From Candidatus Hydrogenedentota bacterium (GTDB taxonomy: Bacteria; Hydrogenedentota; Hydrogenedentia; Hydrogenedentales; SLHB01), in NCBI GenBank assembly GCA_045863335.1, contig BTVY01000008.1:32001-96000 (forward strand): a DNA stretch of 64,000 bases. Direction: 5' to 3'. The translations under genes were made by a program, and so were the position numbers. Below, piece after piece: positions 21,168-44,497 of this stretch. The notes under the pieces are model-generated. The model was given only the letters and a program-made list of their open reading frames with translations. It was not told the DNA's origin and did no database searches. Every line of letters begins with the position of its first letter. Position 1 is the stretch's first letter.

Positions 21168-21191
21168 AAAAAAATTCAGCTTGGGATGACC

Positions 21192-23550: not shown

Positions 23551-23560
23551 CCCACGCGGC

Positions 23561-24295
23561 TTAGTGCCGCTCCCGATCGGGTGACTGGTCCCATTGGGCG
23601 TCGTCGCCGAGTTCCGTCTCGAGAGCGAGTTGCAACGCATTGAGTTTCCGCTCGACTTCAAGTCGAACGCGCTCAACCTCTTCGGGAGATGCGTCTTGTG
23701 CCGCGGCGATGGGTTCACCAAACGCACAGACGATGTGCGAGAACGGCTTCGGCAGCACCATGCGGTCCCAGGACCGCAAGCGCCAGCACGGGGATACGCC
23801 AAGTACGAGTGGGATGATGGGCGCCCCGGTCCGGCCTGACAATATCGCCACACCCGGCTTCGATTCCCGTCGCGGTCCTCTCGGACCATCCAGGGTGATT
23901 CCGACCGTGACACCCAGTCGTAGCGCCTTTTCCAACTGCTCAAGCGCTTCACGACCCCCGCGGCTGGAGGACCCCCGAACCGCATGGATTCCAAATGGCT
24001 CAATGACGCGTGCCGCAAGCTCACCGTCGTAGCTGTAGCTGGTTAATGTATGGTATCCGGTATTTCGCTGCGTCCAGATCGCAAGGGGAAGCACCTCGTG
24101 CCAGAACGCAATGATCACACCGCCATGGCCCTCTTCCAACTTTTGTAAATTGCCTAAATCCCGTACGTTAACACGACAGGTCAGGCATAGGACTCTGTAG
24201 AAGAAAGAAAAAGCGAACGAGATTATAGATAGAGTAAGTCGCTGCTTTAAGGTAAAACAAACAGGACTTACGTACTCCAGATCGGCATGTCTCAA
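23561..24295 (-). CDS. Lysophospholipid acyltransferase family protein (DUF374)
   Basis: AFWHE, S.S.DGE, VRGSSSRGG, DGPRGP, SWDR...PKPF. Confidence 0.85.
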   Translation of the reverse strand: MRHADLEYVSPVCFTLKQRLTLSIISFAFSFFYRVLCLTCRVNVRDLGNLQKLEEGHGGVIIAFWHEVLPLAIWTQRNTGYHTLTSYSYDGELAARVIEPFGIHAVRGSSSRGGREALEQLEKALRLGVTVGITLDGPRGPRRESKPGVAILSGRTGAPIIPLVLGVSPCWRLRSWDRMVLPKPFSHIVCAFGEPIAAAQDASPEEVERVRLEVERKLNALQLALETELGDDAQWDQSPDRERH

Positions 24296-25167
24296 TGGTA
24301 TTCCATGCCCTTTAAGAGCTGCCAGACAACGCGCGTGCGAGGCGTGGGGAGGGCAGACTGCTGTGCGCGTCGCATGATCTCACCGCTTATGGCGTCAATT
24401 TCGGTGCGTCGCTTGGCTCGAACGTCCTGCAACATGGAAGAGATGTTATCTTTCGTTTCCTCGCAGGTGGCTTCGGCGACTTCGACCAAGCTCTTGTCGA
24501 ATCGGTAACCTTCCGTGCAAGCTACCTTTACGGCTTCAACCACCAAGTCGCGCATGAGTTGGCGCGCTTCCGGAATTTCAAGTATCTTGCCATTCGGAAT
24601 GTCCAACAAACCGGTGATCGGATTGATCCCGGCATTCACCGCCACCTTTTCCCACACGGCCTGGCCAGGAGACTCGGTCAGGTCCAACGCAAAACCCGCC
24701 TTCTCCAATGCGCGAGTAGCCGTGTCGACCGAACAGGAAGTCCAAGCGCCCAGACGCGTCGTTCCCGAGGCGGCATGCCGAACGTGTCCTTCGTCAAGCA
24801 GCGTTGACGCCTCTGTCGTGACGCCAACCAGCAAGTTCGCACTGCCCACCATGGAACAGAGTGTTTCAATGTTACCCAATCCATTTTGAATGGTCAGTAC
24901 AGCACTTCGCCCATTTATTCCTAATGAGCTTGTAGAATATGACTTTACACATACAATGACAAGATCTTGCCCGCCTGGAACACTTGAAACAACCTTGACC
25001 TTCTGCGTCTCCGCACCGGTTGCTGTTTCGACCGTTATCCCCTTAGAATTCAGTCGAGTCGCTCGGTCTGAATGATGATCCACAAGGGTAACATCCACAC
25101 CCGCCTTGGCAAGGCGAGCTGCGTAAAGACATCCCATGGCTCCGGGTCCGATGACTGAGATCTTCAT
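24292..25167 (-). CDS. panE: 2-dehydropantoate 2-reductase
   Basis: GPGAMG, CVKS, QNGLG, WEKVAVNAGINP, SSMLQD...RRTEID. Confidence 0.92.
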   Translation of the reverse strand: MKISVIGPGAMGCLYAARLAKAGVDVTLVDHHSDRATRLNSKGITVETATGAETQKVKVVSSVPGGQDLVIVCVKSYSTSSLGINGRSAVLTIQNGLGNIETLCSMVGSANLLVGVTTEASTLLDEGHVRHAASGTTRLGAWTSCSVDTATRALEKAGFALDLTESPGQAVWEKVAVNAGINPITGLLDIPNGKILEIPEARQLMRDLVVEAVKVACTEGYRFDKSLVEVAEATCEETKDNISSMLQDVRAKRRTEIDAISGEIMRRAQQSALPTPRTRVVWQLLKGMEYH

Positions 25168-25204
25168 GGTCTTAATTCCCCACCCCCATGTCGGATTGAG
25201 AGTC

Positions 25205-26071
25205 TCATTCCTCCGCTAGCGATTTGACGAAGCAGTCCTCAAACCCCTTGACCTTCCGCATTGCATCGCGAGCGGACTCTGCCGCCACGCGATCCTTGTA
25301 CTCTCCCACCAACGCGCGGACATGTTTACCATCCGTGGACGGGACGAGATTCACGGTGAAGTCGGTCGCTTTTTCAGTATCATCCTTGAATCGTTTGGCT
25401 CGGTCGAGGTTGTTCGAGTCGAAGGACGCCACTTGAATCGTAAATGGCCCTGCCGCGGAGGTCGTCGCGGGTTGCGACGTTTCCACGGGATCTGCCGGTG
25501 AGGAGGTCTCGGCTGGCGTCGGCTCTGGTTCCGTTGTCGCCGTTTCAGGCGCGGCCGGTTCTACAGGCATAGCCGGGGTAGCCGGCACCGTCGCGGGCTG
25601 GGTCACAGGCGGCGCTTCCTTTGCCGCGGTTTGTGTCGAAGTCTCCGGATTAGGCGTGTCCGGTTTCGTTGACGTAACATCGTTGCGGTCGCGCCGGGGT
25701 GGTGGGGCGGGGATGTACTTTGCATTCGACTCGCTGCGTCTTGCCGACGAACCCGATGCCCCAGTAGAACTTCCAGTCTTCTCCGATTCCGCCGGCAACG
25801 TGACGGGCCGCGGCGCAACCTGTCTGCCTTCGCCCTGGGACGCCGCGGTCCCCGCAGGCACTCGCTCCGGAATCTCAGCGGATTCTGAGTTCGACGCCAC
25901 CGGAGCGGAACCCGAATCGCCGGTGAACCGCTGAACCAGGATGCCCGCGATAAAGAGCGCGCACATCAGCAGCAGCAACGCACAGATCGCCATAACGAGC
26001 TGATAAGAGGAAAGCTGGAGCGCGGGTTGTTCCTTGGAACCCCGCGCGCGATTTCTATTCGGATTGCCCAT
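25205..26071 (-). CDS. SPOR domain protein (DedD/FtsN-like)
   Basis: Single TM helix, Pro/Thr/Ser-rich linker, C-terminal FTIQVASF...RALVGEY SPOR domain. Confidence 0.8.
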   Translation of the reverse strand: MGNPNRNRARGSKEQPALQLSSYQLVMAICALLLLMCALFIAGILVQRFTGDSGSAPVASNSESAEIPERVPAGTAASQGEGRQVAPRPVTLPAESEKTGSSTGASGSSARRSESNAKYIPAPPPRRDRNDVTSTKPDTPNPETSTQTAAKEAPPVTQPATVPATPAMPVEPAAPETATTEPEPTPAETSSPADPVETSQPATTSAAGPFTIQVASFDSNNLDRAKRFKDDTEKATDFTVNLVPSTDGKHVRALVGEYKDRVAAESARDAMRKVKGFEDCFVKSLAEE

Positions 26072-26618
26072 GTTCGGTCAGCGCCACTTCCTCGGGTTGC
26101 GCGGCCTCTTCGTTCTCAGCCGCCTCCAATGCACTCAACTGCTCAACGAGCCGCGTACGGCCCTGTTCCATTTCCGCAAAGGTGAGATTGGGGTCCCTCA
26201 CTTCGATCAGCCGATTGTTAATACGGTCCGTAAAAAGGGCAACGCGACTGTCTCCATCGCCTTCGGCTGATTCCTTCACATGCCGGAAGACTTTTTGCCG
26301 ACGCAACAACTGGGCGGCGAGAAACGCCTTCGCCAACTCTACCCGATCGGTTGACTCCACCGCATCGTAAAAGAGCTTGCGCAGCGGCGAATACGCCTCT
26401 TCTGGTTCCTGTTCGGCCACGCGGGGATCGATATACTCCGTTTCCCACACGGCCAGGGCGCTGCTCGCCATTTCAGGTTGAAAAGACTCGCGGGCGAAAT
26501 CGAGCCGCACCAAGGCCTGGTTTTCAATCTTCACCATGGACACGACGGTTTCACCATGCTCGAACGACCGTTCGGTCGCCGCGCACTCCCGTCCAGGTTT
26601 GCCAATTCGAATTTCCAT
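26055..26618 (-). CDS. Conserved hypothetical protein
   Basis: Tightly packed in the operon; C..T.R.F..GE...S...R.D N-terminus and L.QLLRRQK motif. Confidence 0.65.
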   Translation of the reverse strand: MEIRIGKPGRECAATERSFEHGETVVSMVKIENQALVRLDFARESFQPEMASSALAVWETEYIDPRVAEQEPEEAYSPLRKLFYDAVESTDRVELAKAFLAAQLLRRQKVFRHVKESAEGDGDSRVALFTDRINNRLIEVRDPNLTFAEMEQGRTRLVEQLSALEAAENEEAAQPEEVALTEHGQSE

Positions 26619-26624
26619 ATGAGA

Positions 26625-29600
26625 CTACTTGCTACTCCCCGATGATGCGGGCTTTCTCGCTCCAACAATACCCCCACCAATTTTAAGCAGATCGACCAGT
26701 ATTTTTCTAGGGGCGTCGATTACGCGAAATGCTTCGTTCGCCGCTTCCAGGGCTCCGCTCACCAACGTTACGTGTACGGGGGGCGTTTCCGCAAGGGAAC
26801 TCACGGGTTTGAACGTAGGCCCGGAAAGCGTAAAGGCCAGTTCGATATCCTGCTGTGCCAGACGATGCCCCTGCACGTTGAAGTTCTCCGCGAGCAGGGG
26901 AATGCGTTCCGCCGCGTCGGGCGTAACGGCAATCTGAATACCGTAGTTCATATCGCCGTCGGTGACGAATTGCCCACTCGCCTGCATGCGCATCGCGTCC
27001 GAGGTCAGTTCGATACGTGGCGTTCGCACCACATCTTTCTCGAACTCCACATCGGCTTCAAGCGACGAAAACTTCAACGAAGGCGGGAGGGAAGAGACCT
27101 CGGAAGATTCCATCTGCTGCTCCAACATGGCCAGCAGGTAGTCGGCACTGAACTGCCCTTCGCCCATCGTGAAGTACCCTTTGCCTTGCAAGGTTCCGGG
27201 ATCGTCGCGATCCTGGGAGTAGGCGATCTTGCCGGACATGTTTCCCCGGAACACGTGGGGCAGGTCCAGCGTATCCATCATGTACGCCGCCGGGATGCCT
27301 TCCCAACTCGCTTCCGACTCGAACGAATTCTGCTTCCGATGGCTTATGTAGGACCCGCTGACGCGGCCCTCGTCAACCACGGCTTCGTAATGGCGCAGCC
27401 CGACTTCGGTCAGCGTGGCGAACCCTTCGCCGTTGAAGTTCGTGCCACGCCACGGCGGGACCGTTAACTGCTCCGCTGCGATCCGGTACGTCCAGCGCCG
27501 ATCCACGGGGGGATACTTCTCGAAATCCCGCTCGAGCGGCGCGAACCACGTTCCACCCCGTATGGGAGGAGTCTCGCCGGATTCCACGTGAATCGTCAAT
27601 TCTCCGGTCTCTTCTGACCCGCTGGCCATCCCGCCTTCGAGACGGACGCCTTTCAGCGCGATAGGAACTTCGCTCGTGTCTGCCTGAAGCGAGATCCGAT
27701 CGATGTCGCAGGTGAACCGGGAACGCCAGCCATCGGGGCTGGCTTCATCCCGCTCCCAGACGTAAGTGCCGTTCGACCCTTTTCCTCCCGTAATGGTGTA
27801 AGGGAGCGGGAGGCATTTGCCTACGGACACCACGTCCACGGACTCCGACCGCGCCTCCGCCTGTTTCAGGCGCCATTTCGCGCCGTCATGATACAGGCTC
27901 GTCGTGCCCGCGAGTTCTGTTCCCGCGATGAGGCCTTGGATCGTGCATTCGACGGACCGGCGAGGAGTGAACGTGCCCGTAACTTGCCCGTTGGCGCCGA
28001 TACCGACGGGCTTGAGAAACCACCAGCGATACCCGATCTCCGTCTGAGTCGCGTCGATATCCGCCTCGAACTCGACTTTCTTTTCGGTGAACTTCACTTT
28101 CGCGTTAATCACGCCGCTTCCCGCGAGTTCCGCGTTGCGAATGGTGCTGGCAAGTTTCGAGTCCTCGATGGCGGTCAACGACCCGGCGACCGTGGCGCTT
28201 CCTGTCTTCGTGTCGAGGTCGTAGCTCCCGGTTAACATCATGGGCTGCCCCATGAACGTGGCATTGAGCGGGTTGACTTGGACCGCGCCCGCTTCAAGCG
28301 TCACCCGCCCGGCCAGCCCCGTTGCCTCCAGCCCCGTGGTCTTGTGCACGATTTTGCCGTCGAGCACAGGGATCGTTCCGCTGGGCTGTTTACTTTCGGA
28401 GTCCCACGCCACCTCAAATCGGCCCAACCGAAGCTCGCCCCCCGGATAGGTTGAATTGGCAGGCCGGAACGTCATCGCCCCGCCTTGCGCAGCGGCCACC
28501 GTCCGGATGACGGGGTTCTCGGTTGTGCCCGTGAGGGTCAACATGCACTCTTCCAGTTCATCGACGGTGTACTCGATTTCGCCAAACTGCTCCAGGCGAT
28601 CTGCCAAAACGGAACTCAGGATTTCGCGTACGGGCAATCGGGAAGATGTGAATGTCAGGTCCAGCACGGGCACCTCATTGCTGAATGCAACGGAGCCACT
28701 GAGGTTTCCTGCCAACGTTTCGGTATCCGCGCTGGCCATACTCAACCGCAGCGTGCGGGTATCCGGGTGGTACGTCCCGTAGGCACTCAGCGCCCCTGTC
28801 ACAGGGGGCAGATAATCGGGCTGGTCGCGCACTTGAAGGTCTTCGAACAATGACTCCAGAGACAGGGAGATCGAGCCATTCTCGTTGCCGGCGAGCCGGG
28901 CAATTGGCGCCGCCGAGCCGGTCCGTACAATGCGCTGGCTGGCGGGCAGGAACACATTCACGTCCTCGGCGGATATCTCATCGCACTGAATCCGCAAGTC
29001 AAAGCTCGTTGCCGACGAGTACTGAACGTCGATGTTGAAGCCCTTGTCCTCGTCGCCGGCCAGATCCCCGTCGATCGTGCCGGTCACCGACGACGACCCG
29101 GTGAGCCTCGCGATGTCGAGATTCAGCGAAGTCAGCTCAAGTCGGGTATCGCGGACTACGTTTTCCACGACGAGGGTACACCCCGAACCGGTCAGTCGAA
29201 AGGGGATTCTTGAACCGGCACGTTCGCTGCCAGACGGTACGTCTGGCGAGAACCAGGGATTGTCCGGGTCTCTACGAACACGAAACGCCGCACCGTCCAA
29301 CCGGATATGCTCGACCGAGATATCACCCGCCAGAAGGTCCAGCAGATCGATGTAGACGACCGCTTCGGGTGCGGTCACGTGGAATTCGCCGTACGAAGCC
29401 GTCGGATATCGCAGTTCAACCCCCTCCGCCCGAAGCCCGCGCAGTCCGAACGCAGTGACCTCTTCGACTTCCAGGTGGGCACCCGTACGGGTGCGAGCCG
29501 TTTCCAGAAGAACACCCCGCAACCCCTCAAGACGGTATTTGGCATACAGGGCGCCACCGGCCACGACCGCAGTCAAGACCAGCAGACCCACTAACCACAG

Positions 29601-29639
29601 TCGGGAATAGCGGGACGTCGCGACGTTCGACTCGTCCAT
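26625..29639 (-). CDS. AsmA-like (YhdP/TamB-type) periplasmic protein
   Basis: N-terminal TM anchor, long beta-taco-like repeats, C-terminal LSGPTFKP AsmA_2-like end. Confidence 0.7.
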   Translation of the reverse strand: MDESNVATSRYSRLWLVGLLVLTAVVAGGALYAKYRLEGLRGVLLETARTRTGAHLEVEEVTAFGLRGLRAEGVELRYPTASYGEFHVTAPEAVVYIDLLDLLAGDISVEHIRLDGAAFRVRRDPDNPWFSPDVPSGSERAGSRIPFRLTGSGCTLVVENVVRDTRLELTSLNLDIARLTGSSSVTGTIDGDLAGDEDKGFNIDVQYSSATSFDLRIQCDEISAEDVNVFLPASQRIVRTGSAAPIARLAGNENGSISLSLESLFEDLQVRDQPDYLPPVTGALSAYGTYHPDTRTLRLSMASADTETLAGNLSGSVAFSNEVPVLDLTFTSSRLPVREILSSVLADRLEQFGEIEYTVDELEECMLTLTGTTENPVIRTVAAAQGGAMTFRPANSTYPGGELRLGRFEVAWDSESKQPSGTIPVLDGKIVHKTTGLEATGLAGRVTLEAGAVQVNPLNATFMGQPMMLTGSYDLDTKTGSATVAGSLTAIEDSKLASTIRNAELAGSGVINAKVKFTEKKVEFEADIDATQTEIGYRWWFLKPVGIGANGQVTGTFTPRRSVECTIQGLIAGTELAGTTSLYHDGAKWRLKQAEARSESVDVVSVGKCLPLPYTITGGKGSNGTYVWERDEASPDGWRSRFTCDIDRISLQADTSEVPIALKGVRLEGGMASGSEETGELTIHVESGETPPIRGGTWFAPLERDFEKYPPVDRRWTYRIAAEQLTVPPWRGTNFNGEGFATLTEVGLRHYEAVVDEGRVSGSYISHRKQNSFESEASWEGIPAAYMMDTLDLPHVFRGNMSGKIAYSQDRDDPGTLQGKGYFTMGEGQFSADYLLAMLEQQMESSEVSSLPPSLKFSSLEADVEFEKDVVRTPRIELTSDAMRMQASGQFVTDGDMNYGIQIAVTPDAAERIPLLAENFNVQGHRLAQQDIELAFTLSGPTFKPVSSLAETPPVHVTLVSGALEAANEAFRVIDAPRKILVDLLKIGGGIVGARKPASSGSSK

Positions 29640-29652
29640 ACTACGCAGGGAA

Positions 29653-30714
29653 TCAACTGCTGGCGTTCGTTTCGGCCGGAACCTCAGCCGCCGGTTCGTC
29701 CGATTCGATCCAATTGAGCCCCTTCTCCTTGATTATTTGCGTTCGGAGCTTCTCGGAGATTTCCGGGTTGTCCCGCAAGAACTGGCGGGTATTTTCACGC
29801 CCTTGGCCCAGATTCTCACCGTTCATGGAGAACCAGGCGCCGCTCTTTTGAATGAGCTTGCTTTCGACGGCCAGGTCCAGCAGGTCTCCCTCCCGGGAAA
29901 TGCCCTCGTTGAACAGTATATCGAATTCCGCCTGGCGGAAGGGAGGACCCATCTTATTCTTCACGACCTTCGCCCGAACCCGGTTACCGACGTCCTGGTC
30001 TCGCTCCTTGATCGTGGCGATTCGGCGCACGTCGATCCGCATACTCGAGTAGAACTTCAGCGCGCGGCCTCCGGTGGTAGTCTCCGGGCTGCCAAACATG
30101 ACCCCAATCTTCTCACGAATCTGATTGATGAAGATGACCAGGGTCTTGGAACGGCTGATCGACGCCGTGAGTTTCCGCAGGGCCTGCGACATCAGGCGGG
30201 CCTGAAGACCTACGTGGGTATCACCCATTTCGCCCTCGACTTCGGCCTTCGGAACCATCGCCGCTACCGAGTCAATGACGATCACATCCACCGCGTTGCT
30301 CCGCACGAGCGTTTCGCAGATCTCCAGGGCCTGCTCCGCCGTATCCGGCTGCGATACCAAGAGGTTATCGATATCGACGCCTAACCGGGTCGCAAAGGTG
30401 GGGTCCAGCGCATGCTCCGCGTCGATAAAACAGGCGATGCCGCCGGCCTTCTGTGCGTTCGCAACCACATGGAGCGCAAGGGTCGTCTTACCGGACGACT
30501 CCGGGCCAAATACCTCGACCACACGGCCGCGCGGCATCCCGCCCACGCCCGTGGCAATATCCAGCGAAAGACTGCCTGTGGATATGGCAGGTGCGCGCCG
30601 ATCAAAATGATCATCTCCAAGTCGTACCAGCGTGCCGCGACCAAACTGCTTCTCGAGTTGTGAAACCGCGATATCCAAGGCCTTGCCCTTCGGATCGGTC
30701 TTCGTGTCAGCCAT
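29653..30714 (-). CDS. recA: Recombinase RecA
   Basis: [44 protein letters not shown]. Confidence 0.99.
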
Positions 30715-30734
30715 CGGAGTTCTCCTTCAGAGAT

Positions 30735-30787
30735 ACTGAAAATCTTTTCACTTTCCGTATACTACACACAGCCCCGCGCTCTGTCAA
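30735..30787 (-). promoter_or_regulatory. recA promoter (TTGACA-N17-TAGTAT) with palindromic operator AGTGAAAAGATTTTCAGT
   Basis: -35 at 30782-30787, -10 at 30759-30764, operator at 30735-30752 covering the predicted +1. Confidence 0.7.
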
Positions 30788-31543
30788 GTAGTATTCTCAG
30801 CAGGAAATCGAACCCCTCCATTCTAGTCTCTTCCATGACGAAAGTCCAAGCTATTCGTGGTGACCCCATTCGCAACCATTTGCTCGGCCGATATCTGGAA
30901 CTAAGCCCCACAGTTCCGCAATCACGTCATCGGCGCAGCGTGGGAGGGCGGAAGGGCTTACGCGGGCGCTGGGTCATCATACAAACGAGCTAGTTGATGT
31001 GAAATCCCCTCGCAACGTTTGCGTTTCCTTTGTTTCTCTAATCTATTTGCAAAATATCCGTAATTCGTACTCCAAGCTGAAAAAACTGAATCCATGGGTA
31101 TAGTTCACACGACTAACGTTAAAGAAGACGCAGCCCAATCCTTTCCATGAAAGCCGACGTAATTACATGGCAATATTGGGAAACAAAGATGGGTAATGCA
31201 TGAATTACTTTTTCTCGTTTAGGCCCAATAGTAACATGAATCATAATAAGAATCCTCTTCACATAAGTCGAATGACTGAGAAATACCTAGTCAAATATAC
31301 GCTAACGTAAATAAACTACCTTGTAACTCACTATGGCGCTTATTCATGACCCGGGTCAGTATGCAGGTATTCCTTAAGTACGCCATTTACTGGCGTTAAT
31401 TTATCTGATTGCGCACAGACACTTGAGCGGCGTTCTGGCGTCCCGCCCAGAATTGATGCTGCGTCTGGCCGCCCGAAAAACGGGTCCAGGGACGGCAGTG
31501 GTCCTAGTTCGAGGTAATAGCGGCGATTGCGTGAACGGTCCAA

Positions 31544-31572
31544 TTGACACCGCAATAGGGAGGTGATAAAAT
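31544..31572 (+). promoter_or_regulatory. tRNA promoter TTGACA-N17-TAAAAT
   Basis: Near-consensus elements with extended -10 TG, 16 nt upstream of the tRNA. Confidence 0.75.
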
Positions 31573-31588
31573 ACCGCTTGCCTTACGA

Positions 31589-31664
31589 GCGGGATTAACT
31601 CAGTTGGTAGAGTGCCAGCTTCCCAAGCTGGATGTCGCCGGTTCGAACCCGGTATCCCGCTCCA
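31589..31664 (+). tRNA. tRNA-Gly (anticodon CCC)
   Basis: GCGGGAT acceptor stem, anticodon arm CCAGC-TTCCCAA-GCTGG, GTTCGAA T-loop, encoded CCA, 76 nt. Confidence 0.97.
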
Positions 31665-32194
31665 TTTCTTCATCTACCAATTCTGTTGCTCCGTAGCCGT
31701 CTCCGCCAAGCGGCGCTCGCGACGCCAGACCCTCCGTATCACGTGACGCATTCAAACAAGCGTCCGGCATAACCCGCCATCGTCTGATCGTCCGACCATG
31801 CGCCGCTATCCTGGGGAGTGGAGGAGATCTGTCGTCGGCCTGACCGCGGGACTTCGAGCCAACCAACGAAGCGCGCATCCACCGCGACGGGACGCAGGCA
31901 ACTCGAGTACGCCAACACCAAGCACGTATTCTCGCGTCACTCCGCGTAAATTATCTCGCACACGCAAAATACGCTGCGCGATGCAAATCATCCGGGAAGA
32001 TGAATGCTGCGACTTTTCGCAACGCCCAAACCACTGAAAACCCCATGTAGTTCTATACGCTGAAGACACAAATGAAGTCGACACAGGCCTGTCAAAGAAT
32101 GAGTTAGGCGAGATAGCTCACACTGGACGTCAGGTTTAGATATGACAAGTAGCGCCGTACGGAAAGCCGCAGCCCGCCATTTTGCAGCCTCAAT

Positions 32195-32222
32195 TTTGAA
32201 CATAATATATATTATCGGACGT
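32195..32222 (-). other. dif: dif-like XerC/XerD chromosome dimer resolution site
   Basis: ACGTCCGATAA-TATATA-TTATGTTCAAA: 11-6-11 layout; XerD arm matches E. coli TTATGTTAAAT at 9/11; intergenic. Confidence 0.85.
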
Positions 32223-32355
32223 TATATTGACCAATGACCGCGCAATCGACGGGAGAATCGGGTTGGCCTCTGGCCACTCCCAGGGTCACTTTTCGCCGAC
32301 ATCCCCTTCCGCCAGATCCGGCCCCGCCATCAAGCGAAACTCGGGATGCCGGGAC

Positions 32356-32658
32356 CTACGACTTTCCTTTGATTACGGCGAGTGTTTCTTTGAGGGCCTG
32401 AGCGAGGCGCCCCAAGGCTTGCAGACAATCTTGCTCATCGGCGTCTGCCTCGGACTCGGCGCGGGCTAGTTCAACGGCGAAGGTATATGCTGTCTGGAGC
32501 GCGAAGGCCTGGGTATCGATCCTGGGGCTGGACTCCTCGATTTCCCCGAGGCGCTGGTTGACCCGGCCTACGATGCGGAGCGTCGTGGCTTCGTCTCGAT
32601 AAACGGGAACGGTGACGGTCTTCCCTCCCATCTTGACTTGCAAAGTGGGATTCTTCAT
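32356..32658 (-). CDS. zapA: Cell division protein ZapA family
   Basis: V.MGGK.V.V...VNQRL.EI...ALQTAY..A.EL pattern; conserved position after pheT. Confidence 0.7.
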   Translation of the reverse strand: MKNPTLQVKMGGKTVTVPVYRDEATTLRIVGRVNQRLGEIEESSPRIDTQAFALQTAYTFAVELARAESEADADEQDCLQALGRLAQALKETLAVIKGKS

Positions 32659-32951
32659 GGCCGAAACTCGTTTCGGAGGGATTTCACGCTGCCCAGGAGC
32701 ACCTGAAGGGAATTTCGAAGTTCCTCTACACGCGTCCGGAGGCGCGAATTCTCCTCCTGAAGTCCCGCGATTTCTTCAGCGGATCGAGTTAGTGTCGCCA
32801 ATTCTTTACGTTGACGCCATTGCTCTTTCTGCATTTCTTCGTGGCGCTCGCTGGCGACATCGATTTCTTCGACGGCGGATACCGCAGCCGCCCGGAGCTG
32901 GTCCATCAGGAGCGCAATCTCATCGACCTTCTCCCGAATCGAAGGTTTCAC
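32655..32951 (-). CDS. ZapB-like coiled-coil protein
   Basis: Heptad coiled coil (LQEENSRLRTRVEELRNSL); between pheT and zapA with 4-nt overlaps. Confidence 0.55.
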   Translation of the reverse strand: MKPSIREKVDEIALLMDQLRAAAVSAVEEIDVASERHEEMQKEQWRQRKELATLTRSAEEIAGLQEENSRLRTRVEELRNSLQVLLGSVKSLRNEFRP

Positions 32952-35341
32952 CGCAACTGGGCCTCGAATTTATCCTGCAAGGTGCGCAGGATCTTGTCCC
33001 AACTCTTTTGAGTATCCTTGTCCGTCAATGTCCGATCTGGCGACTGGAATACCAGCCCCAAGGCAAGGCTTTTCTTTCCCTCGGGCACTTGTTTCCCGGT
33101 GTATACATCAAAGATTTCAATGCGTTGCAGGAGCTTGCCGGCGGCGGCCCGAGCCGTCTCCAGCACCTCGCCTGCCGGCACGGCTTCGTCGAGGACCACG
33201 GCCATGTCGCGTAGTGACGGCGGGAAGACGGAGACGGCCTCGAAATGCTCATCCGCGCGGACACATTTCAATAGAGGTTCAAGGGCCATATCCATCACGT
33301 ATACGGGCCGCTCGATGTTGAACCGCGCGGCTACGTCGTCATTGATCTTCCCCAGCGCACCAATCGACTGTTCGTCATACAGTAACGCGGCCGCATGGCC
33401 TGGTTCGAATGTGGCTTGCTCTAGCGATTGGAGGATTAGCGAGACGCCGAAGAAGCTGGCGACTGACTCTCCAATACCCTTCAAATCGTAGAAATCGGCG
33501 GTGCGCGGCTCGGCGCTCCAGTGTCTGCTCCCCCGTCTTCCCGCGAGCGCGATGCACAGACGCGTGGGCTCATCCGGCAACTCTTGGCCCTCAGAAATAT
33601 AGACCTTCGCGATCTCGAACAGGCCGACGGACTCCACCCCGCGTCGCAGGTTTGTCGACACGGTTTGAAGCATGGCCGGGAGAAGGCTTGCGCGCATCCC
33701 GGCGTGATTCTCTGAAAGCGGGTTCTCGAGGAGGATCATCCGGGAGGCTTCCTGCTCCAGGCCCGCCGCCACCGTGTCAGACTGCGAGGCAAAACTGAGG
33801 CTCATCATCTCGCATAGCCCAATTCCAGCGAGGAAGTGCTTCAGCTTCCGCAACGTCTTTTCGGCGGGCGCATAGACTTGTTCCGTCTTTCGCACCCGGG
33901 GTAAGCTGGAAGGTATTGTATCATAGCCATGTAATCTGGCCACTTCTTCGATAAGATCAGCTTCCTGAGTCACATCGTACCGCCACGACGGAATAGAAAC
34001 ATTACATGAATCGACTTGTGATTTCTCAATACCGAAGCCCAACGACTCCAAGTACCTATCCTGCGCATCCGGTTCCACCGCGCCACCCAACAGGGCGTTG
34101 GTTCGGGCGTAACGTAGCGTCACCGTCCGCGCTGGCGCGCGTCCGGGATACTCGTCCAGGACACCTTTCGCGCATTTCGCCCCCGCGAGTTTCTCGATAA
34201 GTGCCGCGGCCCGATCCAGGGCAAAGCGCGCCATCTCCGGATCGGCGCCTCGCTGGAACCGGGTCGAGGACTCGGACTGCAGCCCGAGCGCCTTTGATGT
34301 GCGCCGGACAGATTGCGGCTGGAAGTAGGCGCTTTCCAGGAACAGGGTCGAGGTATCCTCGCCAACTTCCGAGTCGAATCCGCCCATGACACCGGCAACC
34401 GCAACGGGATTTTCCGCGTCGGCGATGACGAGCATGTGTTCTTCGAGAGAACGCACCTGTTCGTCAATTGTTTTGATCGTTTCACCTTGTTTCGCTCGAC
34501 GCACAACAATCTTATTCTGCAATAACTTATGATAGTCGAAGGCGTGAAGCGGATGCCCCGTTTCCAGCATGACATAGTTCGTAATGTCCACGATATTGCT
34601 GATTGCGCGCTGTCCGGCGTGTACAAGCCGCTGCACCATCCACAGCGGAGAAGGTCCAATCTGCACATCGGTGAGTACACGGCCCGTGTATCGCGGGCAA
34701 AGCTCCGTATCTTCGATGGTCACGCTGGAAAGGTCGCCGACGGGTCCCCCAGCTTCCCCGACGTTGGCATCCGGCAAGATCATGCGTGTACCCAGTGAGG
34801 CCGCAAGTTCGCGGGCGACCCCAATCATTCCTGCCCAGTCGCCCCGGTTCGGCGTGACCTCGATTTCCAGGATTACGTCGTCTAGCCCCAACAGCGGGAT
34901 TGCGTCGGCGCCGATTGGCAAGTCTTGGGGTAGAATGAGGAGTCCGTCATGGTCCTGGCCAAGCCCGAGTTCCCGCGCCGAACACATCATCCCTTGGGAC
35001 TCGACTCCGCGCATCTTCCGGCGCCCGATGGCGAATCCGCCGGGGAGGGTGGCGCCGACCACGGCCGTTGGCACCAAGTCCCCCACTTTCATGTTCTTGG
35101 CCCCGCATACGATTTGGAGGGGGTCATCCTTCCCCACGTCGGTCTGGCATACCACCAGCTTATCGGCATCGGGATGGGGCTTTATCTCGAGAATCCGGCC
35201 GACCCAGACCTCGCGCACCTCGGCGCCTGGCCGCTCAATGGACTCAATTTCCAGTCCGAGGAGGGTGAGACGGCGGGCAAGCTCTTCTGGATCCAGGTCG
35301 AATTCGACCAGTTCTTTTAACCAACGATAGGAAATCCGCAT
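32948..35341 (-). CDS. pheT: Phenylalanine--tRNA ligase beta subunit
   Basis: MRISYRWLKE, HPDADKL, VCGAKN, TPNRGD, DLIEEVARLHGY, C-terminal FDX-ACB domain. Confidence 0.97.
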   Translation of the reverse strand: MRISYRWLKELVEFDLDPEELARRLTLLGLEIESIERPGAEVREVWVGRILEIKPHPDADKLVVCQTDVGKDDPLQIVCGAKNMKVGDLVPTAVVGATLPGGFAIGRRKMRGVESQGMMCSARELGLGQDHDGLLILPQDLPIGADAIPLLGLDDVILEIEVTPNRGDWAGMIGVARELAASLGTRMILPDANVGEAGGPVGDLSSVTIEDTELCPRYTGRVLTDVQIGPSPLWMVQRLVHAGQRAISNIVDITNYVMLETGHPLHAFDYHKLLQNKIVVRRAKQGETIKTIDEQVRSLEEHMLVIADAENPVAVAGVMGGFDSEVGEDTSTLFLESAYFQPQSVRRTSKALGLQSESSTRFQRGADPEMARFALDRAAALIEKLAGAKCAKGVLDEYPGRAPARTVTLRYARTNALLGGAVEPDAQDRYLESLGFGIEKSQVDSCNVSIPSWRYDVTQEADLIEEVARLHGYDTIPSSLPRVRKTEQVYAPAEKTLRKLKHFLAGIGLCEMMSLSFASQSDTVAAGLEQEASRMILLENPLSENHAGMRASLLPAMLQTVSTNLRRGVESVGLFEIAKVYISEGQELPDEPTRLCIALAGRRGSRHWSAEPRTADFYDLKGIGESVASFFGVSLILQSLEQATFEPGHAAALLYDEQSIGALGKINDDVAARFNIERPVYVMDMALEPLLKCVRADEHFEAVSVFPPSLRDMAVVLDEAVPAGEVLETARAAAGKLLQRIEIFDVYTGKQVPEGKKSLALGLVFQSPDRTLTDKDTQKSWDKILRTLQDKFEAQLR

Positions 35342-35342
35342 G

Positions 35343-36350
35343 TTAGAACTGCTCCAGGAAGCGTACGTCGTTTTCGTACAAGTAGGTGATGCTGCTGATC
35401 CGGTGGCGGACCATGGCGATGCGGTCGACACCGAGTCCAAAAGCGAATCCCGTATATTTCTCGTAGTCGTAGCCGGCGTGCTTGAACACTGCAGGATGGA
35501 CCATACCGCAGCCCAGGATCTCCATCCAGCGGGACTGCGTGGATCCATCGGGCGCGGTGCTCGTCCACAGGATGTCCAGCTCGGCGGATGGCTCAGTGAA
35601 CGGGAAAAAGTGTGGTCGAAACCTCATCTGCACGTCTTTTCCAAATAGTCGATGGATGAAGTGCATCAACGTGCCCTTGAGGTCGGCGAAGCTGACTCCT
35701 TCGTCCACCAACAGGCCCTCAATCTGGAAGAACATGGGGCTGTGAGTTGCGTCTGCGTCCACACGGTATACCTTGCCCGGTGCGACCACCGCGACCGGCG
35801 GCTTGGCGTTTTCCATAACCCGCATTTGCACTGGAGACGTGTGCGTACGCAATACGACGCCCGGCTTTACGAAAAAGGTATCGTGAAGGTCACGCGCGGG
35901 ATGGTCTGCGGGAGTGTTCAGGCTGTCAAAGTTGTAGTACTCCGTTTCGACCTCCGGTCCGGTGGCCACCTGGAATCCCAATTCGCTGAAGATATCGATG
36001 ATCTCCTCCGTAACTTGGGTGATGACATGAAGATGCCCGGTCGGTGGCCTGCGCCCGGGAAGACTGATGTCGGGACGGTCCCGACGGGCGGTCCCGGCTC
36101 TTTCCTGGACCTTGAATTCGGCGGCGCGGGCTTCGATGGCGTCGTTGAGTTCGACCTTCAATAGGTTTGCGGCCTTGCCTAAGGCGGGCCGATCTTCCGC
36201 AGACGCTTGGCTGACGCTCCGGAGGATGCTGGTGATGGCGCCCTTCCGTCCGAGAAATTGAATGCGCAGTTCCTCGATTCGTTGTGACGAATCGGCTTCC
36301 GCGATTTCGGCGAGCGCTTTGGTTCGGAGTTCTTCCAACTGCAGTTTCAT
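35343..36350 (-). CDS. pheS: Phenylalanine--tRNA ligase alpha subunit
   Basis: HPARDLHDTF, LRTHTSPVQ, FPFTEPS, GFAFGLG. Confidence 0.98.
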   Translation of the reverse strand: MKLQLEELRTKALAEIAEADSSQRIEELRIQFLGRKGAITSILRSVSQASAEDRPALGKAANLLKVELNDAIEARAAEFKVQERAGTARRDRPDISLPGRRPPTGHLHVITQVTEEIIDIFSELGFQVATGPEVETEYYNFDSLNTPADHPARDLHDTFFVKPGVVLRTHTSPVQMRVMENAKPPVAVVAPGKVYRVDADATHSPMFFQIEGLLVDEGVSFADLKGTLMHFIHRLFGKDVQMRFRPHFFPFTEPSAELDILWTSTAPDGSTQSRWMEILGCGMVHPAVFKHAGYDYEKYTGFAFGLGVDRIAMVRHRISSITYLYENDVRFLEQF

Positions 36351-36365
36351 GTAGATTTTTCCTGA

Positions 36366-37025
36366 CTATTCAAACAGTGCGGAGCCGACTCGGACCTCTG
36401 TGGCACCTTCTTCAATCGCGATCTCGAAATCTGAGGTCATCCCCATGGAGGCAACGGGCAAATCATTGGAACGCGTCAGCTTCTGGAGCCCGATAAACGT
36501 GCTTCGGATGAGCTTTTCGTCGTCCGTCAACGGAGCCATAGTCATGAGACCGCGGACCCGTAGGTTGGGCAGGGTCAATGCCAAATCCAACATCTTCGGG
36601 AGAGCTGCCGGCTCCACCCCGTGCTTGGAGCTTTCTCCCGAGACATTCACTTCTACAAGCACGTCAAGGACCTTCCCCTCTTCTTTGGCTTTGCGATTTA
36701 GAATCTCCGCAAGCTCGGCACGGTCGACTGAATCGATACGCTGAAACAGCCGGACGGCCGCAGCGGCCTTTCGGCGCTGGAGGTTGCCGATCATGTGCCA
36801 CACGATATCGCCCGGTAGTGTTGCGGTTTTCGACTCGGCCTCGGGAATCCGATTCTCACCGAAGTGGCGGACCCCGAGGTCGTAGAGAACGCGCACATCG
36901 GAGGCGGGACGTCCCTTCGTAACCGCGACCAACGTAATTGAATTGGCCTGTCGTCCAGACCGTTCAGCGGCAGCGGCGATTCGTTGCTTTAGGTCAATCA
37001 GTCTTGTCTCGATACTGCTGCTCAC
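36366..37025 (-). CDS. yggS: PLP homeostasis protein (YggS family)
   Basis: LVAVTK, FGENR, WHMIG.LQ..K, GLMTM, SMGMTSDFEIAIEEGAT.VRVGS. Confidence 0.93.
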   Translation of the reverse strand: MSSSIETRLIDLKQRIAAAAERSGRQANSITLVAVTKGRPASDVRVLYDLGVRHFGENRIPEAESKTATLPGDIVWHMIGNLQRRKAAAAVRLFQRIDSVDRAELAEILNRKAKEEGKVLDVLVEVNVSGESSKHGVEPAALPKMLDLALTLPNLRVRGLMTMAPLTDDEKLIRSTFIGLQKLTRSNDLPVASMGMTSDFEIAIEEGATEVRVGSALFE

Positions 37026-37199
37026 TGGTCCGCTTCGTCCCCGCATTTGGTCGAGACATGGTAGTTCCGCCGGTCACGGGAATCAAGCCGAGAATGCGGT
37101 ATCACGGCTTGCTGAACCACGGTGTTATGCATACACGGCGCGTGCGGTGGGGCGCATCGCATCGGGGAGTAACCCTCGTTGCGAGGGGAGATTTCACGG

Positions 37200-39023
37200 C
37201 TATGCAGCGGGGGGAGTATAAAGTCTTGAAGCCAAAGCAGGTTCTGCGGAGTCGATCCGGTACCAAGCGTCTCCGGCCTGGAGAACGATATCCCCGTCAA
37301 GTTCTTCTATGGGTTCGCCAGCCTCGGGGTGCTCGTAGATGAGTTCGTACATTTCCGCGGAGCCCCGCTGGATGTCGATAACGGTTTCGCGTGCCTCGCG
37401 GGCGGATTCGTACCAAGTCCCATCATTAAACTCATATTGTTCACCCTGGTAGGTCTTTGGTAGATGGCGAACATACTGTTCCGAGTTGGCTTCGCGATCG
37501 AGTTGACTCTGTTCGGTCGCCGCCAATGGCTCGTTCGCGGCGAGTTTTGTATCCAGCATCAGACGGGTGCACTCATCCCAGAACTGATCGCTTGCCCAGC
37601 GGGCTCGGTCAAAATCGACAATCGCTTCGACGTAGCGTTCCTGCTGGACTTTCTCACGTCCGCTCAGCACGAGCATCCGGGTCAGTGCGTACATTTCGTC
37701 GCCGCCAGACTCGTCGACGATTCCCTGCCAATACTGTCGCGCTTCTTCGTAGCGTTGGGCCTCGATCTCACGGGCTTCCTGCGCCTTGGCCGACCACTCG
37801 CGAGCCTGCTCTTCATCCCCCTGTTCGGAGGCAAGGGCAGCGCGATCTTCTGCGGCCCGGGCCCGTACCGAAGCCCAATTCGCATCTCGTTCTTTGATTG
37901 CCCCATCCATAAGCTGGATGAAACGGGGTGAGAACTTGTTATCGGGCTGCCATTCCAGATAACTCTCCCATCCGGCTTTGGATTCTTCGTAGCGACCCAC
38001 TTCCCCGAGTTGCCGGTAGAGTTGACGCCGAACCCAGCGGTCGTGGTCCAGGCGAATCGCCTCGGAGAGGTACTCGATTCCCTTCGGAATGTTCTCCAAT
38101 TTCTCCTCGTAGATCCCAAATCCCAGATCGAAGTAGAGTTTGTAATTCCGGGGATTCTTCCGAATACCGTCTTTCAGGAACTCCACGCCGGCATAGTAGA
38201 AATCTTCGCGCTCCCCGACCCAATCTTGGTATTCGGGTTTGTAGGTGCGCAACTCGTAGGGCGTGAAATCCAATTGCGCCGTGATGTTGTAGGCAAGGTG
38301 CCAAGCGCCGACCAGGAATGCGTCGATAAACGTCGGGTCCAGCGTTACCACGGTTCGCATCATGGGGATCATTCGGTGGACGGAACCTTGGTGCCAGAGT
38401 TTGTCGACCTGGAGCCAAATGAGGTTCGCGGCCATCTTACGAAAACCGAGAAACATGTTTGCAAGACTGATGGAGGTGCCCCGTTCCTCGTAGAGGCCGG
38501 AAAGATTGAATTGGGACCCGGAGCTTGTCAAACGGCCATCGCGCAGAGCGGACACAAAATCTGCGCGTAACGGAGCGAGCTCGTTACTGCGGGCCATTCT
38601 CCACAGTTCCCAGTCTCGTCGCTCTTGCTCTTCGCTTTCAATTTGCCCCCGCTCTTCCTCACCGCCTTGCATTTCGGCGGCTTCGAGCGGCGCGGATGTG
38701 TAGCGGACGACTTTCGGGAAGGGTTCTCCGTCCTTGTCATAGTCCGATTCCGCCACCGGAACGTCGTCGAGAAAGACTTCACTTTCCTCGACCAAACGCT
38801 GGAAAAGCTGAATGTCGACTTCATCCGCCCGGTCTTGCGAATCGGGCTGAATGACCGTTCCCGGGATACCGAAAATGCGAACCTGGGTGCAAGCCGAGAG
38901 AATCCAGCGGTAGAATCGCTCGCTATCGCGCAGATGATCGAGACGCCGTCCCTGCAGCGACGCGACCGCGAGGACTGCAATGACGACCAGCCCGATTGCC
39001 AGATTTGGAAACTTCTTAGACAT
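37200..39023 (-). CDS. Membrane-anchored TPR-like protein associated with an ABC transporter (PilG-like)
   Basis: N-terminal TM; LGFRKMAANLIWLQ...LDPTF...GAWHLAYN...FLKDGIRKNP motif; helical repeats. Confidence 0.55.
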   Translation of the reverse strand: MSKKFPNLAIGLVVIAVLAVASLQGRRLDHLRDSERFYRWILSACTQVRIFGIPGTVIQPDSQDRADEVDIQLFQRLVEESEVFLDDVPVAESDYDKDGEPFPKVVRYTSAPLEAAEMQGGEEERGQIESEEQERRDWELWRMARSNELAPLRADFVSALRDGRLTSSGSQFNLSGLYEERGTSISLANMFLGFRKMAANLIWLQVDKLWHQGSVHRMIPMMRTVVTLDPTFIDAFLVGAWHLAYNITAQLDFTPYELRTYKPEYQDWVGEREDFYYAGVEFLKDGIRKNPRNYKLYFDLGFGIYEEKLENIPKGIEYLSEAIRLDHDRWVRRQLYRQLGEVGRYEESKAGWESYLEWQPDNKFSPRFIQLMDGAIKERDANWASVRARAAEDRAALASEQGDEEQAREWSAKAQEAREIEAQRYEEARQYWQGIVDESGGDEMYALTRMLVLSGREKVQQERYVEAIVDFDRARWASDQFWDECTRLMLDTKLAANEPLAATEQSQLDREANSEQYVRHLPKTYQGEQYEFNDGTWYESAREARETVIDIQRGSAEMYELIYEHPEAGEPIEELDGDIVLQAGDAWYRIDSAEPALASRLYTPPAA

Positions 39024-39028
39024 CGTGA

Positions 39029-39871: not shown

Positions 39872-39874
39872 GCC

Positions 39875-44489: not shown

Positions 44490-44497
44490 AACGGAAA

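Follow-up and report, generated by a model that had tools for sequence, protein, structure and literature searches.

A dif site at a GC-skew switch of origin polarity in a family of Hydrogenedentota

The chromosome dimer-resolution site dif and the GC skew disagree in the family of Hydrogenedentota studied here, reproducibly and heritably. GC skew is the standard guide by which origins and termini are placed in new genomes; the terminus that it indicates is normally confirmed by dif. In the 64,000-nucleotide stretch of DNA that was analysed (the window, part of the 165.6-kb contig C8), a predicted dif lies beside a switch of the + strand from C-rich to G-rich. Since a genuine dif is found at such an origin-polarity switch in several relatives, the skew rule fails in this lineage, and the comparisons below show that GC skew in the family departs from the usual origin-to-terminus pattern. 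The genome (G000) is a draft metagenome assembly of 105 contigs, all genomes compared with it are likewise metagenome assemblies (G025 in about 40 contigs, G012 and G051 in about 10 each), and genes were predicted with a home-made caller. The best relative of its RecA, at 80% identity, comes from a metagenome-assembled genome that bears the name Hydrogenedentota.

The site occupies positions 32195..32222 and is oriented on the minus strand, where it consists of two 11-nt arms, ACGTCCGATAA and TTATGTTCAAA, flanking the 6-nt spacer TATATA. The + strand reads TTTGAACATAATATATATTATCGGACGT, the reverse complement of the 28-mer named in the original prediction. Like the classical XerCD/dif sites described in the part of PMC2731167 consulted, it is 28 nt long with an 11-6-11 architecture and the inner palindrome ATAA ... 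TTAT, occurs once, lies between genes and is poor in G+C, with 7 G or C among its 28 bases in a genome whose GC is 0.60. Allowing up to three mismatches, the 28-mer has one match in the 6.75-Mb draft genome and its reversed control none; the 23-nt core is single-copy in 42 of 54 family genomes (41 of the 53 relatives), again with no control matches. As in classical systems, conservation among relatives is stronger in the XerD arm, and recombinases of the XerC/D type are encoded. XerD is found at C4:111236-112099 (346.1 bits, cut-off 329.6), and a second Xer recombinase on C13, which scores 293.1 bits on the XerD model, is probably XerC-like. An FtsK-gamma domain is also encoded (106 bits). We regard the 28-mer as very probably the XerCD/FtsK dimer-resolution site of this chromosome, because it is unique, its core is single-copy in the family, Xer recombinases and FtsK-gamma are encoded and the word GGGGGAG, described below, converges on it.

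The position of this dif relative to the skew is unlike that of classical sites. In the Proteobacteria surveyed by Carnoy and Roten (2009), the median distance between dif and the maximum of the cumulative GC skew is 7,277 bp, according to the part of that article consulted (PMC2731167); the present dif is instead found 6 kb from a local minimum. The cumulative-skew maximum is a correlate of dif and not part of the recombination mechanism. Our literature searches found no description of a dif at a skew minimum, for which per-genome distances may sit in supplementary files, and none of skew in Hydrogenedentes.

The dif site lies in a 1,641-bp gap between recA (29653..30714, minus strand; Pfam RecA, 452 bits) and the cell-division gene zapA (32356..32658, minus strand; Pfam ZapA, 42.3 bits, cut-off 23.8). 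This is the gap of about 1.6 kb said to hold only tRNA-Gly, and ARAGORN indeed places there a tRNA-Gly(CCC) that points toward dif (31589..31664, + strand), the sole tRNA of the window. To the right, the Pfam-annotated block from pheT to prmC and prfA (32948..47788, mostly minus strand; pheT at 32948..35548 and prfA at 46709..47788, both minus) also points toward dif, as does a proS-like gene to the left (14540..16384, + strand), so that the predicted orientation of these genes toward the site was borne out. GC drops to 0.53-0.54 at 30-33 kb of the window, and one stretch of the gap is AT-rich, with a GC of 0.35 in its lowest 200 bp. Besides the recA leader, tRNA-Gly and dif, a comparison with the congener G025 found no conserved element in the gap, and the AT-rich stretch is thus among the parts that differ. 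While recA adjoins dif in G025 and G051 and lies 14 kb away in G032, the pheT-prmC-prfA block is syntenic beside dif in G025, G051, G032, G053 and G001.

The switch from C-rich to G-rich that had been noticed from hand counts is confirmed by the computed profiles. In 2-kb windows the first 35 kb or so have a negative skew, and at 38-59 kb most windows are positive, with exceptions to the positive right-hand skew at 47-49 kb, 51-55 kb and 59-64 kb; along contig C8 it is negative at 10-70 kb and positive at 70-165 kb. The GC3 skew shifts in + genes and in - genes alike, and the switch is therefore independent of the coding strand. After strand correction, the GC3 skew of the + strand is -0.107±0.018 over the 60 kb to the left and +0.053±0.017 over the 60 kb to the right. 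The 2-kb windows, the local cumulative-skew minimum 6.0 kb to the right of dif and the top jump statistic of the contig (at C8:70000, window position 38000) together place the switch zone at 32200..38500. By GC3 skew, the strand running toward dif is C-rich on both flanks, that is, the + strand at 1..32194 and the minus strand at 38500..64000, where the + strand is G-rich.

The same switch occurs at dif in four other assemblies. Against the flank values of -0.107/+0.053 in G000, the congener G025 gives -0.122/+0.242 and G007 -0.113/+0.106; G023 has a right flank of +0.275 and a left flank that is negative in raw skew only, and G036 a left flank of -0.105 and a right flank that is positive in raw skew only. 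The switch is common to two congeners, and in 7 of 14 genomes, representing five genera, the cumulative skew reaches its local minimum no more than 6 kb from dif. Measurements of 26 family flanks, which come from relatives and are not independent samples, gave 16 in which the strand running toward dif is C-rich, 7 in which it is G-rich and 3 with values near zero. Both sides were measured in 11 genomes, and the canonical G-to-C pattern is seen on both in none of them. A dif at a C-to-G switch is abnormal, as had been suspected. At least six other genera (eight genomes) lack the switch at dif and have one sign across it or a value near zero on one flank. Wherever the switch is present, third codon positions of the G-rich strand are enriched in T as well, a signature of the ordinary type. 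We have little doubt that the switch is real and conserved.

Furthermore, the skew behaves as a property of position. Four-fold sites of G000 and G025 are identical at 0.438, against 0.331 by chance, which places them about 84% of the way toward saturation, and the genes beside the G025 origin have a skew residual of -0.206 that falls to -0.034 in their orthologues scattered elsewhere in G000. As the switch is kept despite near-saturated four-fold sites and skew is lost on relocation, skew here must be positional and maintained, not inherited with the DNA. In G025 the residual declines with distance from dif (0.277, 0.137, 0.076 and -0.022 over 19-67, 67-143, 143-260 and 260-355 kb), and the G000 orthologues of these graded genes have residuals in the same order. 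Right beside dif, in the first 20-40 kb, the skew of G025 and G023 is weaker than at 45-70 kb, unlike the flank of the origin.

A short G-rich word provides an independent polarity. The E. coli KOPS motif is GGGNAGGG, and known KOPS sit on the G-rich leading strand. Copies of GGGGGAG and TGGGGGA across the window (1..64000), counted by strand, run toward dif from both sides. On contig C8, TGGGGGA occurs +10/-2 to the left of dif and +3/-15 to the right, and GGGGGAG +7/-1 and +4/-15 (Fisher p=0.0025). When 14 genomes are combined and the counts limited to 100 kb from dif, GGGGGAG occurs +97/-16 to the left and +27/-129 to the right (Fisher p=1.5e-30), so that 226 of 269 copies point toward dif, and it converges in all 14 genomes. 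Like KOPS, this is a short G-rich word on the strand reading toward dif that flips exactly at dif in a genome encoding the FtsK gamma domain; unlike the E. coli KOPS, it has a different sequence and lies on the C-rich strand near dif. We propose GGGGGAG as a candidate KOPS-like, FtsK-orienting word, which would offer a means of orienting contigs in this uncultured group that does not depend on skew. An E. coli control, centred on position 1,590,250, which we take to be the dif coordinate, gave KOPS counts of +9/-0 to the left and +1/-3 to the right and skews of +0.003 and -0.052; the dif core used as a query had no match in the retrieved sequence, and this coordinate served as the midpoint.

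Genome-wide, GGGGGAG occurs about once per 9 kb (783 copies in contigs of at least 30 kb), and its strand bias varies by contig (chi-square 118 over 53 contigs). The skew of the motif-bearing strand takes both signs (mean +0.009, sd 0.089), and skew and word polarity are uncorrelated across the genome (rho -0.04). Around dnaN the shorter word GGGGGA diverges clearly within 50 kb in two of three genomes, with divergence in G000 confined to the left flank (right flank +12/-11); GGGGGAG shows no flip within 95 kb of the origin candidate in G051.

The origin itself most likely lies elsewhere. As had been stated for the neighbourhood of the site, dnaA, dnaN and parB are absent from it; they are on contigs C19, C5 and C29, respectively. 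Two long paralogues with DnaA domains are also present (open reading frames of 775 and 927 aa). Genome-wide, DnaA boxes form clusters in only two places, the surroundings of the dnaN gene on C5 and the end of C19, and oriC is likely the dnaN locus flanked by DnaA boxes on C5. This candidate lies at a C-to-G switch in all three genomes compared (G000, G025 and G051), and the leading strand near the origin is therefore G-rich. Together with the motif-strand mean near zero, this leaves the lineage-wide form of the earlier suggestion of a C-rich leading strand unsupported, while a local form near dif stands with the 16 of 26 flanks. In G000 the 100 kb to the right of dif contain no origin, nor do the 335 kb on the opposite side in G025, and the two genomes are heavily rearranged around the origin. 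The dnaA gene was rejected as an origin marker in relatives, as it lies in uniformly negative skew in G032 and in patchy skew in G036; dnaN with DnaA boxes worked.

The switch at dif belongs to a wider pattern, in which skew changes sign on many contigs and upward jumps are sharper than downward ones. Genome-wide, 13 positions have a jump statistic above +0.2 and none has one below -0.2 (maximum +0.25, minimum -0.17). The skewness of this statistic is +0.61 (contig bootstrap 0.20-0.89, with none of 500 resamples at or below zero) and still +0.50 without C5 and C8, a moderate asymmetry. Of the three top upward jumps, one is that of the dnaN/DnaA-box origin, another that of dif, and the third is on C1, at about 108-110 kb in G000; this third jump is also present in G025, at C24:241 kb in a collinear region, and the polar word does not flip there. 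Another of the top jumps, at 150 kb on C6, falls at a synteny break or at contig ends in all three congeners examined. An Rfam search of the gaps at the C1 and C6 jumps gave no matches.

From these patterns we infer that the switch is neither an oddity specific to dif nor a lineage-wide reversal of mutational bias, and that it is one of a few sharp, conserved upward jumps in an irregular, sawtooth-like skew. Skew would then still record fork direction in the normal way, the leading strand being rich in G and T. Averaged over evolution, forks would travel outward from a zone at each of the sharp upward jumps and would meet at points scattered through the regions between jumps. Segregation polarity, comprising the KOPS-like word, dif and FtsK, would be kept separately and might disagree with the direction of replication. 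The most likely mechanism, to which we give a probability of roughly 40%, is that the chromosome has several outward-replicating initiation zones, by analogy with cyanobacteria of irregular skew. More tentatively, the family may replicate from a few fixed, conserved zones, the dnaN origin and another a few kilobases from dif among them, with the segregation terminus uncoupled and locally opposed. We know of no precedent for an initiation zone at the place where segregation ends. Against initiation from several zones, no origin-like element is conserved beside dif, and the at least six other genera lack the switch there. The asymmetry between upward and downward jumps is only moderate, with the C6 jump at a synteny break or contig ends, and the weaker skew right beside dif in G025 and G023 does not resemble an origin flank.

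Two known systems invite comparison. In cyanobacteria with irregular GC skew and separate dnaA and dnaN, multiple origins are reported in the part of PMC7198777 consulted. The present genome resembles them in irregular GC skew, irregular gene-strand skew and a dnaA apart from dnaN. It differs from what that part describes in that DnaA boxes are clearly clustered at dnaN, where the skew jumps sharply, and in that its jumps are few, sharp and conserved between species, one of them at dif. In Thermococcales and Sulfolobus, according to the sections of PMC4640148 consulted, genomes are highly rearranged, cumulative skew fails as an origin or terminus marker and dif is found by sequence; the same sections cite work on an archaeon with three origins, in which dimer resolution is separate from termination. 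Here, too, skew is not usable as an origin or terminus marker and dif was found by sequence. On the other hand, those archaea, as described there, have Orc/Cdc6 origins and XerA, whereas here the skew is locally strong and dif lies at a jump of origin polarity.

Several other explanations were weighed against initiation from several zones. One, which we consider unlikely, is that replication starts only at dnaN and terminates near dif, and that the sign of the asymmetry depends on position, the leading strand being G-rich near the origin and C-rich near the terminus; it amounts to a local version of the C-rich leading strand of the original prediction. The C-rich strand toward dif in 16 of 26 flanks, the absence of any genome that is canonical on both sides, the fading of the inverted skew with distance from dif in the G025 residuals and G000 orthologues, and a polar word whose polarity at dif is canonical in every genome examined are all consistent with it. 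However, it leaves unexplained the third jump (C1, on C24 in the congener), where the word does not flip, as well as the sharper upward jumps and the genome-wide patchwork of two signs. The literature searches yielded no precedent, and we know of no mechanism by which skew would change sign along a replichore.

Somewhat less probable still is a historical mosaic, in which rearrangements and a wandering fork-meeting point left old patches of skew and dif lies at a patch boundary by chance. The heavy rearrangement between G000 and G025 around the origin, the sign changes on many contigs and the position of the C6 jump fit such a history, as does the single skew sign across dif in six genera, which is expected where forks meet tens of kilobases away. 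An inversion, however, moves skew and polar words together and therefore cannot make them disagree, and here the words point correctly to dif while the skew is reversed. A mosaic also sits poorly with a switch shared by congeners whose four-fold sites are nearly saturated, with the loss of skew in relocated genes and with the collinearity of the dif and C1 jump regions in G025, and it predicts upward and downward jumps of equal sharpness, contrary to observation.

Improbable, in our assessment, is a process specific to the terminus, in which forks meet near dif and re-start outward through fork-fusion over-replication or recombination-dependent restart, with the consequence that outward forks synthesise most of the DNA that is inherited around dif. 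The G- and T-rich leading-strand signature on the strands pointing away from dif is as this scheme requires, and the rounded switch of G025 and G023, with skew rising over the first 30-60 kb, fits scattered start points. It would require outward synthesis in most generations, however, and leaves the third jump, away from dif, unexplained. Loss of RecG causes a phenotype of terminus over-replication in E. coli. As a cause here such a loss is ruled out, since all 54 family genomes have a RecG match at E<=0.001, and 40 of them, every genome of genus g1 included, have one above the curated cut-off.

That dif sits beside a replication origin, as had been offered as one reading of a Xer site at oriC, is very unlikely. 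The polarity of the switch is that expected at an origin and the gap contains an AT-rich stretch, but this stretch is not conserved in G025, the gap conserves only the three elements named above, and the polar word converges here and diverges at the dnaN locus. Contig C8 carries no DnaA-box cluster, dnaA, dnaN or parB; four scattered one-mismatch DnaA boxes lie at 25-40 kb of the window, and within 5 kb of dif there is one box in G000 and between zero and three across 14 genomes, without enrichment.

An assembly artefact, whether a chimeric join or a strand flip at dif, would be conceivable in a draft metagenome assembly of 105 contigs and is the least probable explanation of all, given the same switch at the same site in four other assemblies. 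The order recA-dif-pheT is collinear in three other assemblies, collinearity of the dif region with G025 reaches at least 100 kb, and contigs from three other studies span the sequence on the tRNA-Gly side of dif, dif itself and zapA; a chimeric join is therefore not supported. Among the listed contigs from other runs none crosses the tRNA-Gly gene, where they stop at 31572 and resume at 31624-31635, a break that is expected because this tRNA is common to several organisms.

The disagreement has practical consequences. A tool that locates origins by skew would report one at dif here, and an assembly check that relies on skew would mark correct assemblies as wrong. If the jumps are initiation zones, natural multi-origin replication in bacteria would extend beyond cyanobacteria, and segregation polarity carried by a KOPS-like word, dif and FtsK could be maintained independently of fork direction. 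If replication is instead ordinary, the family would provide a natural case of a replication-linked mutational asymmetry that changes sign along a replichore, a case relevant to the long-standing question of how GC skew arises.

Gene orientation was dropped as an independent marker of the leading strand, since neither skew nor word followed it: the fraction of + genes carries no signal of strand-corrected skew (rho -0.04), and 49% of genes are co-oriented with the polar word (576 versus 602). The convergence of genes on dif, which had been read as a sign of a terminus, is for the same reason a weak one. Among tRNAs, 15 lie on the G-rich strand against 13, and 11 run with the polar word against 5.

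The dif-like 28-mer lies at window positions 32195–32222 on the minus strand; read on the plus strand, the site is TTTGAACATAATATATATTATCGGACGT, which matches the originally given 28-mer in reverse complement. It sits in a 1,641-bp gap bordered by recA (29653–30714, minus) on the left and zapA (32356–32658, minus) on the right, beyond which follow pheT and, further along, prmC and prfA, all on the minus strand. The gap also contains tRNA-Gly(CCC) (31589–31664, plus). The source genome is a 6.75-Mb draft of 105 contigs with a GC content of 0.60, and its RecA finds its best relative in a Candidatus Hydrogenedentes MAG (80% identity). In a comparison with the congener G025, conservation within the gap is limited to the recA leader, tRNA-Gly and the 28-mer. 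The leader upstream of recA (30715–30790) includes TATACTGAAAAT, is kept in both genomes and may be a regulatory site. An AT-rich stretch between recA and tRNA-Gly (31000–31400; 200-bp minimum GC of 0.35) showed no conservation in G025 in the same comparison and could be what is left of an insertion.

The 28-mer has a single match in the source genome at up to three mismatches (reversed control, 0). At the same tolerance it occurs in one copy each in 13 of 53 family relatives, while its 23-nt core is present in one copy each in 41 of them (42/54 with the source genome; control matches, 0). Of the XerC and XerD pair whose presence the original prediction proposed to check, XerD is encoded with a score above the curated cut-off (346.1 bits), alongside a second Xer recombinase (293.1 bits). 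An FtsK with a gamma domain is encoded as well. A scan for dif-directed words brought out GTGGGGGA/TGGGGGAG, G-rich words that stood out against a C-rich background and are among the most strand-polarised in the genome, though their counts are low. The orientation of GGGGGAG flips at dif in every genome that could be examined. Within 100 kb of dif, the pooled counts of 14 genomes are +97/−16 on the left and +27/−129 on the right (P = 1.5 × 10^−30), and the source genome alone gives 7/1 versus 4/15 across dif (P = 0.0025), the behaviour also shown by FtsK-orienting polar sequences (KOPS). In Escherichia coli, with dif at what we take to be its coordinate, the control word GGGNAGGG gives +9/−0 on the left and +1/−3 on the right, with skews of +0.003 and −0.052, respectively. 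Within 50 kb of dnaN, GGGGGA is directed away from that gene on both sides in G025 and in the family relative G051; in the source genome this holds for the left side alone.

Uniqueness, core conservation, the encoded Xer and FtsK-gamma proteins and the converging word bear out the proposed dif assignment. We conclude from these sequence features that the 28-mer probably functions as dif and that chromosome polarity converges on it. As a recombination site, it would add an unremarkable new case to the XerCD dif family, all testable defining sequence features having been found. What it lacks is only the usual correlate, a position at the cumulative-skew maximum; across 161 proteobacterial chromosomes, the median distance reported between dif and that maximum is 7,277 bp (PMC2731167).

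Along contig C8, which contains the window, GC skew stays negative over 10–70 kb and is positive over 70–165 kb, with a local cumulative minimum 6.0 kb to the right of dif, so that the predicted C-to-G switch, of origin polarity, is real. Genes called with a home-made codon-usage caller (4,656 genes, 84% of the genome) were used to split GC3 skew by gene strand; it shifts across dif in plus-strand and minus-strand genes alike, and the strand-corrected values are −0.107 ± 0.018 on the left and +0.053 ± 0.017 on the right. G025, whose stretches were picked for holding features of interest, is collinear with C8 across dif over at least 100 kb and shows the same switch more strongly (−0.122 ± 0.065 on one side and +0.242 ± 0.015 on the other). 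In the congener G023 raw skew rises to +0.21 on one side of dif, and the switch recurs in two further genera, represented by G036 (−0.105 on the left, positive raw skew on the right) and G007 (−0.113/+0.106). Furthermore, contigs from three other studies' runs cover tRNA-Gly, dif and zapA. A chimeric join is thus unsupported, and the switch is not an assembly artefact.

All the genomes compared, the source genome included, are metagenome assemblies, and the relatives are non-independent as samples. Seven of 14, belonging to five genera, have their cumulative minimum no more than 6 kb from dif, and one (G032) has its cumulative maximum at dif. The strand directed toward dif is C-rich on 16 of 26 flanks in 15 genomes, G-rich on seven and near zero on three. 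Both flanks were measured in 11 genomes, none of which has the canonical pattern on both; six keep one skew sign across dif, which fits a fork-meeting point tens of kilobases off dif. In genomes with the switch at dif, third positions on the G-rich strand are rich in T as well, the ordinary leading-strand signature. In G032 (contig C106, 498800–512900), dif and the pheT–prfA block are inverted relative to recA, so that the block and recA lie to one side of dif, and the orthologues of that block have GC3 skew opposite to those of the source genome.

Neither explanation first offered for the switch, a lineage-wide C-rich leading strand or a dif adjoining oriC, holds as stated. DnaA-box clusters in the source genome occur only flanking dnaN on contig C5 (93.8–96.3 kb, with AT-rich spacers) and at the end of contig C19, which carries dnaA; the two genes are thus separate. 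The dnaN locus is itself a C-to-G switch in the source genome (−0.092/+0.099), G025 (−0.187/+0.025) and G051 (−0.022/+0.086), and the leading strand near this likely origin is therefore G-rich, as usual. On the other hand, C8 contains no DnaA-box cluster, dnaA, dnaN or parB, as the original prediction had observed for the window, and no origin lies within 100 kb of dif on one side (source genome) or 335 kb on the other (G025). The converging genes taken to suggest a terminus are a weak argument, as gene orientation is uninformative in this genome: 49% of genes genome-wide are co-oriented with the polar word, and tRNAs split 15 versus 13 with respect to the G-rich strand. On C19, three DnaA boxes fall within 22 bp (110886–110908) at the extreme end of the contig, and dnaA at its extreme start. 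Two additional long proteins with a DnaA ATPase domain are encoded at C14:23458–23931 (open frame of 775 aa) and C69:4950–5396 (927 aa); a second such paralogue (709–1,068 aa) was found in all five relatives searched and a third in four.

Across the whole source genome, strand-corrected skew has a single mode around 0, with sign changes inside many contigs. It correlates neither with gene strand nor with polar-word orientation (rho = −0.04 for each), and the word-bearing strand has a mean skew of +0.009 (s.d. 0.089). In 36 orthologue pairs between the source genome and G025, identity at four-fold sites is 0.438, where composition would predict 0.331, and yet the switch is retained in both species. 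Origin-side genes of G025 have a residual skew of −0.206, and their orthologues dispersed over other contigs of the source genome one of −0.034. Between genera, orthologues in the dif-linked block have opposite GC3 skew with unchanged orientation relative to dif. The reversed skew weakens with distance from dif, G025 residuals being 0.277 (19–67 kb), 0.137 (67–143 kb), 0.076 (143–260 kb) and −0.022 (260–355 kb), with the same trend in the source-genome orthologues (0.122, 0.030, 0.036 and −0.013). Skew is position-dependent and maintained, not transported with the DNA.

The jump statistic (strand-corrected GC3 skew, 30 kb right minus 30 kb left, the sign of which survives a contig flip) is asymmetric: 13 positions exceed +0.2, and no position is lower than −0.2. 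The statistic has a skewness of +0.61 (contig bootstrap interval 0.20–0.89; all 500 resamples above 0) and of +0.50 without C5 and C8; downward transitions are more diffuse than upward ones. Among contigs no shorter than 80 kb, the strongest upward jumps occur at C5:94 kb (the origin, 0.25), at C1:110 kb (0.23), at C8:70 kb (dif + 6 kb, 0.21) and at C6:150 kb (0.19). In the three congeners examined, the jump on C6 falls where synteny breaks or contigs end. The C1 jump, comparable in size to those at the origin and dif, lies in a gap (C1:107859–108719) between a YcxB-like gene, which ends a run with pepA, folD and a MiaB-like gene, and small HTH and accessory-type genes. This region is collinear in G025, where the same C-to-G jump occurs at the orthologous place (contig C24, ~241 kb) and GGGGGAG stays on one strand (20 versus 5). 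Sharp upward jumps are thus conserved in the genus at no fewer than three places, namely the origin, dif and this third site. A dispersed repeat of ~165 bp on C1 (~102004–102176, 103772–103940, 104400–104567 and 109564–109726) has dozens of matches, in both orientations, in G025 and the congener G026 at 70–97% identity, and resembles a genus-level family of palindromic miniature elements.

Sharp, fixed upward jumps and diffuse downward transitions would result if replication started at fixed sites and forks met at scattered ones. Multiple origins have been reported for cyanobacteria with irregular skew and with dnaA and dnaN encoded apart (PMC7198777), as they are here, and a separation of dimer resolution from termination for archaea (PMC4640148). 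On these grounds, together with the sawtooth shape, the best reading is that forks may travel outward, when averaged over evolution, from a small number of zones including the neighbourhood of dif; the polarity of the KOPS-like word and dif would be upheld separately by segregation (probability roughly 0.4). The main rival, ordinary replication in which the sign of the mutational asymmetry varies with position, we consider unlikely. A historical mosaic of rearranged skew patches seems quite unlikely, because an inversion moves words and skew together and such relics cannot yield dif-directed words on the reversed-skew strand. Re-initiation specific to the terminus is improbable, RecG being present in all 54 genomes. 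Given the absence of origin features from C8, a dif at oriC is very improbable, and the collinear switch in G025 and the bridging contigs make an assembly artefact scarcely credible. To our knowledge, canonical polar-word convergence at dif, a reproducible origin-polarity jump there and a genome-wide sawtooth form a new combination, one not found described in our literature search.

Rearrangement between the source genome and G025 is very uneven along the chromosome: the 195 kb around the G025 origin (C10:309001–504542) map to ~19 source-genome contigs in blocks of 5–20 kb, whereas the dif region is collinear.
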